Assembly: GCA_964636735.1 (NCBI GenBank)
Contig: CAZWUV010000001.1
Span: 1-29,676, forward strand
Source of the DNA: an uncultured Candidatus Saccharibacteria bacterium
Lineage (GTDB): Bacteria; Patescibacteriota; UBA1384; JACPKC01
Length of the DNA stretch: 29,676 nucleotides
Direction: 5' to 3'
Shown: piece by piece, positions 10,801 to 28,931 of the stretch
How positions within the stretch are numbered: position 1 is the first letter of the stretch
Layout of the letters: every line of letters starts with the position of its first letter
Notes under the pieces: model-generated
Database searches by the model: none
Told to the model about the DNA's origin: nothing
The model's input: only the letters and a program-made list of their open reading frames with translations
Translations under genes and position numbers: made by a program

Positions 10801-10840
10801 GGTGTTTTGGAGCGGAAGACGGGATTTGAACCCGCGACCT
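10801..10840. repeat. 40-bp perfect direct repeat, copy 1 (copy 2 at 11117-11156)
   Basis: GGTGTTTTGGAGCGGAAGACGGGATTTGAACCCGCGACCT occurs identically at 10801-10840 and 11117-11156. It covers the variable loop, T-arm, acceptor 3' strand and CCA of tRNA-Gly plus 7 nt of trailer. The period is 316 bp. Confidence 0.97.
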
Positions 10841-10860
10841 TCCCGCTTAGCGGGACGCTC
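10808..10860 (-). pseudogene. Partial tRNA-Gly pseudo-copy (3' two-thirds) with the anticodon arm replaced by a 15-nt palindrome
   Basis: Minus strand reads GAGCG-[TCCCGCTAAGCGGGA]-AGGTCGCGGGTTCAAATCCCGTCTTCCGCTCCA. The intact gene reads GAGCG-[CCTCCTTGCCAAGGAGG]-AGGTCGCGGG.... The 5' acceptor strand and D-loop are absent. Confidence 0.9.
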
Positions 10861-10873
10861 AATTAAGCAAAGC

Positions 10874-11116
10874 TTAATTTCCAAGTAATTTTTTAAATTG
10901 GTTGCCGCCTTTATAAGATTTAATTTGGCGTTCCCTTCTTTTTGCCTGCAAAGAAGACTCAAATGTCTCTTTGTATATTAACAACCACTTGCCAGATTGA
11001 CGCGTAGACGTTGTTTGTCCACGATTATGTTCTGACAGTCTTCGCTTTAAATCATTTGTCGATCCAATGTAGTGTCGACCTGATTTTGTATTGCGAAGAA
11101 TATAGGTGTAATACAT
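10874..11116 (-). CDS. Small stand-alone GIY-YIG nuclease family protein
   Basis: MYYTYIL......HYIGST.DLKRRL.EHN.G...T....W.LIY.E.F.....A..RE.QIK. The Tyr motifs, conserved Arg and metal-binding Glu appear intact. 80 aa. Confidence 0.93.
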   Translation of the reverse strand: MYYTYILRNTKSGRHYIGSTNDLKRRLSEHNRGQTTSTRQSGKWLLIYKETFESSLQAKRRERQIKSYKGGNQFKKLLGN

Positions 11117-11123
11117 GGTGTTT

Positions 11124-11198
11124 TGGAGCGGAAGACGGGATTTGAACCCGCGACCTCCTCCTTGGCAAGGAGGCGCTCTACCACTGAGCTACTTCCGC
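11124..11198 (-). tRNA. tRNA-Gly (GCC)
   Basis: GCGGAAG-TA-GCTC-AGTGGTA-GAGC-G-CCTCC-TTGCCAA-GGAGG-AGGTC-GCGGG-TTCAAAT-CCCGT-CTTCCGC-T-CCA. Confidence 0.97.
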
Positions 11199-11215
11199 AT
11201 AGTTTTATTTTTTTA

Positions 11216-11299
11216 AAGACGGGATTTGAACCTTCCGCTTCTAGTGGAACAGGCGCAACCTTCCCGCTAAGCGGGACGCTCGTATCAAGCTACTTCCGC
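11216..11299 (-). pseudogene. Degenerate tRNA-Gly pseudo-copy: anticodon arm swapped for the palindrome, 21-nt hairpin inserted in the T-stem, 3' acceptor end lost
   Basis: Minus strand reads GCGGAAGTAGCT-TGATAC-GAGCG-[TCCCGCTTAGCGGGA]-AGGTTGCG-[CCTGTTCCACTAGAAGCGGAA]-GGTTCAAATCCCGTCTT. AGCTACTTCCGCAT is identical at 11187-11200 and 11288-11301. Confidence 0.9.
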
Positions 11300-14871: not shown

Positions 14872-15558
14872 GTGAAAAGTTTTTTGGATTTTTTGCAACT
14901 TAAAGGTGGCAAAAGTGATGCTGGAGCAGAATGGACATTGAGTGAAAAAACAAAAGATCAGCTTTTAAAAGAAGAGCGCGAAAAGAAACGCCGTGCATAT
15001 TTGGCACTTAGTTCTGAGGATAAGTGGCAATATTATTGTATTCAGCTTAGCAAATTGCCTAGCGACGAGTATAGTCGGCTTGCGATTTTGCATAGCTTTT
15101 TTGTAGCTATTGGGACGATTGTCTTGACTGGCATGGTCGGAAGTGTGATATTTTTTGCAAGTGGAGCTTTTTCTGTTGTAGAATTGGCACTCTTTATTGT
15201 TTCTTGCAGTTTGATCGTTTTTTGCTTGGCGCTGAGTAGTTACCTAGATAAAAATATTTTTTATTTAGGAGTACGGAGGCTTGAAGATTACTTGTTTATC
15301 GCAGGCATTGCTTCTTATCTTACCCTAGGTTCAGTATTTGTAGTAAGTGCGTCGTTAGCCAACTTGCGTTATTCTTTGGTATTTATGGTTGAGGCAGGTT
15401 TGTGGGGTGTAGTAATTTTTCTTTTGTGGCTATCAATCGGATTTATTCTTGCGTTGCCTTTTCCGAGGACAGAAATTGCGCGGTATTGGCAAAGTTTTTT
15501 TAAGGGGATGGATTTTGCTTTTCTTCCATACATTGATGCGGAAGATTACAAAAAATAA
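14872..15558 (+). CDS. Hypothetical multi-pass membrane protein
   Basis: AAGGAG SD, GTG start, a charged N-terminus followed by about four hydrophobic helices, and a terminator after it. Confidence 0.75.
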   Translation: MKSFLDFLQLKGGKSDAGAEWTLSEKTKDQLLKEEREKKRRAYLALSSEDKWQYYCIQLSKLPSDEYSRLAILHSFFVAIGTIVLTGMVGSVIFFASGAFSVVELALFIVSCSLIVFCLALSSYLDKNIFYLGVRRLEDYLFIAGIASYLTLGSVFVVSASLANLRYSLVFMVEAGLWGVVIFLLWLSIGFILALPFPRTEIARYWQSFFKGMDFAFLPYIDAEDYKK

Positions 15559-15572
15559 ATTATTAAGTCAAG

Positions 15573-15596
15573 GTAGCTCTTAGGAGCTACTTTTTT
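15573..15596 (+). terminator. Intrinsic terminator
   Basis: GTAGCTC-TTAG-GAGCTAC-TTTTTT; overlaps the miaA stop codon. Confidence 0.75.
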
Positions 15597-16612
15597 GTTG
15601 CGCGTAAAAATTCTTGAGCCTTAACAAAAGCTTGTTCTGGCGAGTTAACATATGTAATGTTTTCGCGTTTGCGCCACCAAGTAAGTTGGCGTCTGGCAAA
15701 AGCGTGGATGGCAAATTTTAATTTTTCTTTCATTTCTTGCAGAGATAGCTCGTCTTCTAAATGCTGAGTTATAAATTTATACTCTAATCCAAGATTTTTT
15801 AATTTTGCGCCAAAGCCTTGTTTTAGTAAGTCGCTAACTTCATCTATCATGCCCATCTGAAAGCGTTTTTCTAGGGTGTCGTCTATTCTGTTGTATAAGA
15901 TATCGCGCGGATGGTCAATAAAAATAGTTTTACTTTGCCAATTTGGTGGAGATGATTTTTGTGCTTCGATAAAAGATTTGCCAGTTTGTAGAGTGTAAGC
16001 AAGGGCACGTTCAATTCGGGCGGGGTTTTGTTTGTCGATTTTTTGATAAGTTTTTGGGTCGAGTTTTTTTAGTTGGGCGAGTTTTTCTTTAAGAGACATC
16101 TCTGTCATTCCTGATGAGGAGGGCGTCAGTTGTTCCTTGGTTGGGGATTTTAGGTAATGACTAGATCCCCGATCTGGAGTGCTTCGCTTCCAGTCAGGGA
16201 TGATGGAGGCAGTAGGGAATTGGTAGCCCTTTAAAAGTGCTTCTATATATAGACCTGTTCCACCAACTATAATCGGGGTGATGTTTTTGCTGTGGTAAAA
16301 GTCAATAACTTTTTTGGCATCATCTATCCAGTTTTTAACAGTGTAATTGAAAGTTAAATCAGCAACATTTATTAAGTAATGTTTTAGTCCGTCAATTTCT
16401 ACGACTAATCCAGCTGCGTCTTGATATTCAAAAACTTCATGCGCATCGATTGTTGGTTTGGCAGCGCCAATATTTAAGCCTTTGTAAATTGCGCGCGAGT
16501 CAGCAGAAATAATCGGGTTGCCAAATTTTTTAGCCAACTCAAAGCCAGTGGAAGTTTTGCCACTGGCAGTAGGACCTGCGATAACTAGGATTGTATTGTG
16601 CATAAGTTGCAT
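15587..16612 (-). CDS. miaA: tRNA dimethylallyltransferase carrying an in-frame palindromic insertion
   Basis: IAGPTASGKT, ISADSRAIYKGLNIG, HYLIN, IIVGGTGLYI, NPARIERAL, LGLEY, AIHAFARRQLTW. Confidence 0.96.
   Translation of the reverse strand: MQLMHNTILVIAGPTASGKTSTGFELAKKFGNPIISADSRAIYKGLNIGAAKPTIDAHEVFEYQDAAGLVVEIDGLKHYLINVADLTFNYTVKNWIDDAKKVIDFYHSKNITPIIVGGTGLYIEALLKGYQFPTASIIPDWKRSTPDRGSSHYLKSPTKEQLTPSSSGMTEMSLKEKLAQLKKLDPKTYQKIDKQNPARIERALAYTLQTGKSFIEAQKSSPPNWQSKTIFIDHPRDILYNRIDDTLEKRFQMGMIDEVSDLLKQGFGAKLKNLGLEYKFITQHLEDELSLQEMKEKLKFAIHAFARRQLTWWRKRENITYVNSPEQAFVKAQEFLRATKK
16100..16208. repeat. REP/RPE-like palindromic element inserted in frame in miaA
   Basis: Ends 16100-16114 (CTCTGTCATTCCTGA) and 16194-16208 (TCAGGGATGATGGAG) pair over 15 bp with 3 G.T pairs. 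Internal hairpins GGGGAT..ATCCCC (16143-16170) and CTGGA..TCCAG (16174-16193). It translates as SIIPD...SGMTE. Confidence 0.8.
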
Positions 16613-28822: not shown

Positions 28823-28874
28823 GCGAAGCAATCTCTCAAATAGATTGCCACGTCCTGACGGACTCGCAATGACG
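28823..28874. repeat. CGTC-tagged REP/RPE-like palindromic element, left arm truncated
   Basis: GCGAAGCAATCT-ctcaaat-AGATTGC-CAC-GTCC-TGAC-GGAC-TCGCAATGACG. The reverse complement of the end is CGTCATTGCGAG. Confidence 0.72.
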
Positions 28875-28931
28875 TACTAAATCACTATAACCCTACAGCT
28901 CTAGCGCCCTAAGGCTTCTGGTAGCTAGTAG

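Follow-up and report, generated by a model that had tools for sequence, protein, structure and literature searches.

The DNA considered here, referred to below as the window, is a stretch of 29,676 nucleotides (nt), positions 1 to 29,676 of contig CAZWUV010000001.1 (assembly GCA_964636735.1), from an uncultured Candidatus Saccharibacteria bacterium of the Candidate Phyla Radiation (CPR, or Patescibacteria). The source genome (G000; 692 kb in 87 contigs, of which C1 carries the locus of interest) is 94.9% complete. On the minus strand, miaA (15587-16612), the gene for tRNA dimethylallyltransferase, forms an open reading frame (ORF) of 341 residues without interruption in the ORF list, and its product matches the Pfam family PF01715 (IPPT) with an E-value of 9e-55, as well as the bacterial MiaA structures 2qgn, 3d3q and 2zm5 in the PDB. 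This gene is host to a 102-nt palindromic element (16103-16204), an inverted doublet of two hairpin modules whose terminal tags point outward. An initial annotation, made from the letters of the DNA, had reported a nested-hairpin element of about 109 nt at 16100-16208, with (T/C)(G/A)TCAT-type ends, inside an uninterrupted miaA; the element, its ends and its host gene are all borne out, and the location stands, whereas the exact bounds had to be redrawn to those given here.

Read on the minus strand, the element encodes residues 137-170 of MiaA, a 34-residue peptide (IIPDW...SSGMT) with zero stops, and a six-frame check across it found the MiaA frame to be the sole open one. Its plus-strand start, TGTCATTCCTGA, and end, TCAGGGATGAT, constitute an imperfect terminal inverted repeat: TGTCAT stands at 16103-16108, and the opposite end (16199-16204), once reverse-complemented, reads ATCATC. 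The module that lies 5' in the coding direction (16162-16206, minus strand) is well preserved, with a covariance model score of 60.6 bits (E-value 4.7e-14) and an nhmmer E-value of 2.4e-10. Its tag is mutated (CCATC, with CATC in place of TGTC). The basal stem, ATCCCTGA/TCGGGGAT, is 8 bp long and includes a T.G wobble, the inner stem has 5 bp, and GAA caps the tip; the coding content of the module is IIPDWKRSTPDRGS. The partner module (16103-16151, plus strand), which bears the TGTCAT tag, is degenerate and yields a weak nhmmer match (E-value 0.086). Its coding-strand end, ...TCAGGAATGACA, codes for ...TKEQLTPSSSGMT, and this module and the left one of another doublet of the genome, on contig C18, are collinear. 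The two modules are separated by a short spacer (16152-16161), delimited by comparison with a unit on contig C49 (C49:941-1315) in which a nuclease gene takes that position. Native miaA sequence flanks the element on both sides on the minus strand, as judged from codon and protein alignments with relatives. The upstream flank in the coding direction (16205-16215) ends in P-T-A-S, equivalent to P-Q/E-I-T/A in relatives, and the downstream flank (16091-16102) encodes E-M-S-L, equivalent to their (S/N)-L-S-L.

Contigs from four other public metagenome runs (X2, X3, X6 and X7), which represent wastewater, activated sludge, sludge and bovine metagenomes from four studies, span the element and both of its junctions with zero differences. 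The full agreement of these four independent assemblies rules out an assembly artefact. No contig in the four runs joins the flanks without the element, although rare empty-site alleles could escape such a comparison of assembled contigs. The presence of an in-frame palindromic element inside an intact miaA is confirmed. A scan of positions 15900-16400 against Rfam, with E-values up to 10, gave zero matches, and the element is thus not a described RNA family.

A BLAST comparison of the element with its own genome returned partial and full-length matches on many contigs, which, placed side by side, resolve into a module of ~45 nt. This module consists of an unpaired TGTC tag (sometimes CGTC), the 8-bp stem ATCCCTGA/TCGGGGAT, which encloses a 1-base bulge and a variable stem-loop, and a 3-nt tail. 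A fuzzy two-anchor pattern detected 21 modules in the genome versus 0 in five shuffled genomes, while a profile hidden Markov model (nhmmer) and a covariance model built from 12 copies gave 34 and 31 matches. The ~31 modules are spread over ~24 places, six of which are inverted doublets, all with their tags outward (in miaA on C1, and on C3, C16, C18, C26 and C37); the existence of further copies, on which the initial annotation had made its interpretation depend, is thereby established. The miaA element and the C18 doublet can be aligned over their full length, with 74% identity, which indicates that the spacer and both arms of the former are repeat-derived.

The fold of the module is conserved. 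In the alignment of 12 copies, 95.6% of cells are paired and five pairs have changed on both sides, a result that 0 of 500 shuffles reach. The inner stem varies yet stays complementary (CTGGA/TCCAG, CGGGA/TCCCG, CAGAA/TTCTG), and shuffling of the variable middle ruins the fold at z < -2 in 15 of 21 copies. By itself the miaA copy is unconvincing, since its predicted DNA fold (minimum free energy -17.4 kcal/mol) reaches a z-score of -1.96 relative to shuffled sequences, weakly above chance; it is copy number and covariation that exceed chance. A TGTC or CGTC tag directly precedes the stem in 10 of the 12 aligned modules, and positions 1 and 2 of the basal stem are AU and UA in every one of them. 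The tail is CTT, CTA or CTG, and what would be the loop is 18-40 nt long in this genome and forms a covarying stem-loop of its own. The T.G wobble is likewise invariant (12/12). On the tagged strand this is a pair, but its counterpart on the complement would be a mismatch, C.A, so that the hairpin is better on the former.

Three of the doublets (C18:1491-1598, C3:10516-10617 and C37:3079-3167) are found directly 5' of the signal peptide in three paralogous genes for secreted proteins with an Lcl_C domain, where they are preceded by a (GA)n run. The terminal GGGATGAC of the C18 element supplies the ATG start codon, and in C3 and C37 that end is broken by a 20-nt insertion.

The distribution of the module within the class is patchy: the covariance model detects it in 44 of 151 genomes, in copy numbers from 1 to 38. 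In the nine other genomes of the same family the exact module pattern is absent, and for two of these the covariance model gave copies that were weak or few. Across a species-level genome collection the exact pattern occurs in 85 stretches, versus ~2 expected by chance on a rough estimate, and these stretches include Methylocystis, Bacteroidales, Nitrospirales, several CPR lineages and ~40 contigs of one Rickettsiales metagenome-assembled genome (MAG). The latter, CANDYO01 (loci L045-L127), is dense in full doublets whose outer and inner anchors are those of the CPR element.

Other in-frame hosts, which the initial annotation had called for, were also found. At C23:9512-9722 (locus L007), two single modules in one orientation and frame, each of which ends in the peptide VRDDK, sit in the low-complexity, Pro/Ala/Ser-rich C-terminal tail of a 427-aa family-specific ORF, homologs of which occur in three of the family's genomes. 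Genome G035, which belongs to a different family within the class, has 20 module loci, of which 6, with modules or doublets, are in frame inside long conserved ORFs, namely an RsmI-like methyltransferase gene, two genes for UvrD-type helicases, those for the NAD-dependent DNA ligase LigA and the hydrolase TatD, and another long ORF (L180, L186, L190, L191, L196 and L197). These genes echo the remark that intragenic repetitive extragenic palindromes (REPs) are often located in replication and repair genes (Di Nocera, 2013; PMC3733652). For all five single intragenic modules (three in G035, two on C23) the untagged strand is the coding strand, a number too small for a test.

What miaA looks like when the element is absent was deduced from its relatives. 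Those in GTDB are distant (35-43% identity), and their matches to the query MiaA stop exactly at the element. Closer relatives were obtained from a large protein collection: P0003-P0007 are 308 residues long and 65-72% identical, and P0008-P0011 are 301-319 residues long and 45-61% identical. None of them has the element. Gene order (CofD, a small ORF, MiaA, ComM) is retained on the relatives' contigs, so that their MiaA proteins are orthologous. Between GYQFP and LSL there are 11-12 residues in P0003-P0009 and P0011 (for example Q-I-T-D-N-L-R-E-E-I-K-S), 23 in P0010 and 38 in the query. The linker is thus shorter in the eight palindrome-free relatives of 45-72% identity, as the initial annotation had anticipated; its estimate of about 43 residues from GYQFP to LxxLDP has to be corrected to 47. 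As for the neighborhood of the gene, a 228-aa membrane-protein ORF (14872-15558, plus strand) lies between miaA and the ComM-like gene in the window; it is missing from the relatives' syntenic contigs L029 and L032, where ComM directly follows MiaA.

In the codon comparison, the query flanks P-T-A-S and E-M-S-L match the relatives' P-Q-I-T and S-L-S-L. Between them lie 34 element codons in the query and, in the relatives, 8 codons without counterpart in the query, a net change of +26 codons (+102 nt and -24 nt, or +78 nt). An AlphaFold2 model of P0004 (mean predicted local distance difference test, pLDDT, 95.3) has the eight lost residues, DSFKEQVE, as helix 134-141. That the element replaced a native 8-residue helix, instead of being purely an addition, is supported by these data, in agreement with the proposal that it had taken the place of part of the native helix. 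A MAFFT placement that would make native residues of the relatives homologous to "KEQ" and "IIPDW" of the element was rejected, since the parts of the element that encode these two stretches align to other repeat copies.

The AlphaFold2 model of the query MiaA has a mean pLDDT of 90.5, with a core above 90. Residues 131-170 are modeled chiefly as coil, with block-mean pLDDT values of 44-64, and the last eight element residues (164-171) form a helix of low confidence at the site of the lost one. Outside this region the model fits the tRNA-bound E. coli MiaA (3foz, 2zm5) with a Foldseek TM score of 0.85. All 17 residues that are invariant in a 69-sequence alignment of the family are present. The lost helix opens the tRNA-binding insertion domain, which in E. 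coli MiaA clamps the anticodon stem.

The insertion might have crippled MiaA, in which case the ORF would owe its open state solely to the recent date of the event, and the gene would be a pseudogene in the making. The removal of the first helix of the tRNA-binding domain in favor of a low-confidence loop would fit such a scenario, as would the identity of all copies in the population, which means that no evolution after the insertion is visible. However, besides the invariant residues most of the near-invariant ones are intact, the remaining protein is 72% identical to its relatives, with no frameshift or stop, and the predicted helix 164-171 comes to lie where the native one was. Furthermore, the same allele was recovered in four separate studies, and common tolerance of such insertions is evident from G035, where other essential genes have copies in frame. 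A crippled enzyme is thus unlikely, but of the alternatives it is the one that survives best.

The genome contains six small GIY-YIG ORFs, and one of them links the module to a nuclease. In the C49 unit (locus L130; C49:941-1315), a 94-aa GIY-YIG ORF (990-1271) stands exactly between two modules (941-985 and 1273-1315). Their tags point outward like those of the miaA doublet, and the gene occupies the place of the spacer. Because modules of its kind bracket nuclease genes, the miaA element is best read as an ORF-less derivative of a GIY-YIG unit. The C49 nuclease matches Pfam PF01541 (58 bits), and its NCBIfam matches are weak. Of 162 genomes of the class, 106 have homologs of it, in up to 8 copies per ~1-Mb genome, and homologs with 60-73% identity occur in very different phyla. 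In other CPR genomes, outward-facing GTCAT-tagged hairpins were found within 120 nt on both sides of the gene in 23 of 29 loci, versus 0 of 355 control windows drawn from the same loci. The hairpin-GIY-YIG-hairpin layout also exists in genomes G163, G164 and G165, and its carriers include one Berkelbacteria genome, a further CPR genome and an alphaproteobacterial MAG. The upstream hairpin of the Berkelbacteria locus is nearly the same as the miaA module, and some of the hairpins that flank GIY-YIG genes in other CPR genomes have 4-nt loops (e.g., at loci L136 and L137). This association emerged when the search began from the nuclease rather than from the module, as the loci fetched by the module pattern had only two GIY-YIG homologs, ~2 kb from the module.

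Several other features touch on these nucleases. A further orphan end (TTTGTCAGGGATGAC) is located at C49:1381-1394, just before radA. In the window, a small GIY-YIG ORF (10913-11116, minus strand) lies between tRNA-Gly and tRNA-like fragments with TCCCGC..GCGGGA hairpins; it is only 39% identical to the C49 nuclease and has no flanking module of the miaA type, and its region (10801-11281) contains a perfect 40-nt repeat, at 10801 and 11117. The one GIY-YIG homolog of the Rickettsiales MAG CANDYO01 (L165) carries an internal stop, and the hairpin type on its flanks is a different one.

Elements of this kind are already known, in the form of CGTC-tagged REPs, Ssn-related motifs (SRMs) and Rickettsia palindromic elements (RPEs), in-frame copies included. 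The CGTC-tagged REP superfamily comprises Neisseria dRS3 (CGTC-1), R. conorii RPE-6 (CGTC-1) and RPE-4 (CGTC-4). Its members are characterized by a CGTC tag (TGTC and CCTC are allowed), an 8-9-bp stem whose positions 1-2 are complementary A-T, a 4-5-nt loop and a 3-nt tail. Inverted dimers predominate, some units are intragenic and add 20-30 residues, and the superfamily was concluded to be devoid of a dedicated transposase or associated enzyme (PMC3733652). The present repeats share the unpaired CGTC/TGTC tag, the AT-initiated 8-bp stem, the 3-nt tail, the inverted dimers and the intragenic units. In contrast, a variable, covarying stem-loop of 18-40 nt takes the place of the 4-5-nt loop, the tail is CTT or CTA instead of CCA, and CPR/Patescibacteria are not among the five phyla of that study. 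Another hairpin with a CGTC tag, of a different family (CGTCATTGCGAG ... TGGCAATCT), is present as one copy in the window (28836-28875, minus strand).

The association with a nuclease has its counterpart in a second body of work. NTS (tagged dRS3, CGTCATTCCCGCG..GCGGGAATC) and the related SRM bracket small single-domain GIY-YIG genes (ssnA) in many phyla, in an NTS-ssnA-NTS layout that resembles an insertion sequence (Chenal, 2025; PMC11893778). The Ssn protein cleaves single-stranded DNA (ssDNA) adjoining the hairpin in a strand-specific manner, NTS are rarely intragenic (2%), and Rickettsia and Wolbachia are SRM-rich (PMC11893778). CPR goes unmentioned there. The repeats described here have in common with NTS/SRM the 5' (C/T)GTCAT tag, the YCC...GGRAT core and a strand-asymmetric hairpin, and with the NTS/SRM-Ssn systems the inverted repeats on both sides of a single-domain GIY-YIG gene of ~95 aa, as well as the patchy occurrence of repeat and gene across phyla. 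They differ in that protein-coding, ORF-less doublets are undescribed in PMC11893778. [quoted passage not shown] From the architecture that defines both, the hairpin-nuclease system may be regarded as a putative member of the NTS/Ssn type, and the T.G wobble is an indirect hint at strand specificity of the predicted ssDNA cleavage.

The in-frame copies also recall RPEs, of ~100-150 bp, which are in frame in unrelated housekeeping genes and are read through (Ogata, 2000, 2002, via PMC10969869); their peptides are apparently compatible with the protein fold. The analogy with Rickettsia drawn in the initial annotation is apt, in that RPE-4 and RPE-6 belong to the CGTC REP superfamily, which shares module features with the miaA element (PMC3733652). 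Here, too, a palindromic repeat is in frame in conserved ORFs (miaA, the C23 gene, six genes of G035), with read-through suggested by the open frames. The organism is different, and so, presumably, is the sequence family, and the miaA copy replaced 8 native residues instead of solely adding to the protein.

Hairpin pairs of ~100 nt are best known as REPINs, two inverted REP hairpins with a GTAG tag that depend on the HUH tyrosine transposase RAYT (Bertels and Rainey; PMC3337134). The miaA element has a similar architecture, two inverted hairpins with a short spacer and a total of ~100 nt, and, like REPINs, it is a non-autonomous pair with a single-copy "parent" in which hairpins surround an enzyme gene. 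If it were a REPIN, moved by a RAYT of the IS200/IS605 type, one would look for a GTAG tag and a transposase. The tag is TGTC/CGTC, however, the modules flank a GIY-YIG gene instead, and neither Y1 transposase/RAYT (PF01797) nor TnpB (PF07282) was detected in the 94.9%-complete genome, although control genomes gave matches. This origin is therefore highly improbable. Classical MITEs (miniature transposable elements with terminal inverted repeats) have a target-site duplication and a parent insertion sequence with a DDE transposase. Here the ends of the element are inverted repeats, no duplication is visible, and the sole candidate parent has a GIY-YIG gene and not one of the DDE type.

Slightly more remote still is the idea that the segment is removed from the mature product, as an intron-like RNA or an intein, or skipped by ribosomal bypass. 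The segment does form a strong hairpin in the mRNA, and phage T4 has bypass elements linked to mobile endonucleases. Yet the frame is open throughout, the length is a multiple of three, Rfam gave zero matches, 34 residues are far too few for an intein, and the in-frame stop that bypass needs after the take-off codon is missing. Finally, a native, lineage-specific expansion of the linker, palindromic by chance, has nothing in its favor but the weak fold score of the single copy and is refuted by the census of ~31 related copies in the genome, by the full-length match of 74% to the C18 doublet and by the same module sequence next to a GIY-YIG gene in Berkelbacteria, which leaves it a negligible probability.

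The element is therefore, with good probability, an ORF-less TGTC/CGTC-tagged hairpin doublet of the type that brackets Ssn-type GIY-YIG genes, and it landed in frame in miaA. A plausible course of events is that miaA, where its helical, tRNA-clamping insertion domain begins, received a copy of a doublet that stems from a hairpin-nuclease-hairpin unit. The agent of copying would probably have been an Ssn-type nuclease that acts on single-stranded DNA, with the help of host repair; we infer that the GIY-YIG nuclease mobilizes the doublets. Because MiaA matters to the cell, only an allele that kept the frame would, in this proposal, have persisted, and the surviving outcome would be the gain of 102 nt and the loss of 24 nt of native sequence. 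As the open frame suggests, the ribosome would read straight through the element. In the predicted structure, the peptide is a mostly disordered surface loop of 34 residues where the core meets the tRNA-clamping domain, the catalytic core appears intact, and the C-terminal end of the peptide possibly stands in for the lost helix. The peptide is thus presumably made, and the enzyme presumably still works.

Several observations weigh against this interpretation. Neither a transposition event nor an empty-site allele has been seen, and no target-site duplication is visible next to the miaA element or beside other copies; for this reason mobility is deduced only from copy number and patchy distribution. 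As the closest relatives are only ~72% identical, the loss of the helix and the insertion need not be one event. As the lost helix belongs to the anticodon-stem clamp, MiaA function could be impaired, and the production of the peptide and the activity of the enzyme are derived from sequence and model. Lastly, the published degenerate SRM pattern matched none of the modules; it had 2 matches in the genome versus 2.0 in shuffles, whereas canonical NTS does match it.

Relative to the literature searched, four aspects appear to be new, namely the CPR host phylum, an expanded-loop module that escapes the published SRM pattern, an explicit ORF-less doublet counterpart of the nuclease unit, and a documented replacement of a native helix. 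No paper describing such coding insertions in CPR was found in that literature, as the initial annotation had supposed. The finding joins three separate literatures, on the protein-coding palindromes of Rickettsia, on CGTC REPs without a transposase and on Ssn nucleases that act on ssDNA next to hairpins. It extends all three to CPR/Patescibacteria, whose tiny genomes have little space for junk DNA. As a clean natural case of a repeat that replaces a structural helix in a well-understood enzyme, it makes the effect on tRNA binding measurable.

If the nuclease moves the doublets, this would be a form of transposition driven by a GIY-YIG enzyme, which could be tested with purified protein and oligonucleotides. 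It may even be, although we advance this only tentatively and with some doubt, that GTCAT-tagged hairpin pairs and GIY-YIG genes form a true class of mobile elements that is still active in CPR, with the ORF-less doublets behaving like MITEs that insert into, or sometimes overwrite, segments of essential genes. Were this so, the missing mobilizer of the Rickettsia elements RPE-4 and RPE-6 would be supplied, and Ssn-type systems would serve reduced genomes as a general source of novel loops in their proteins.

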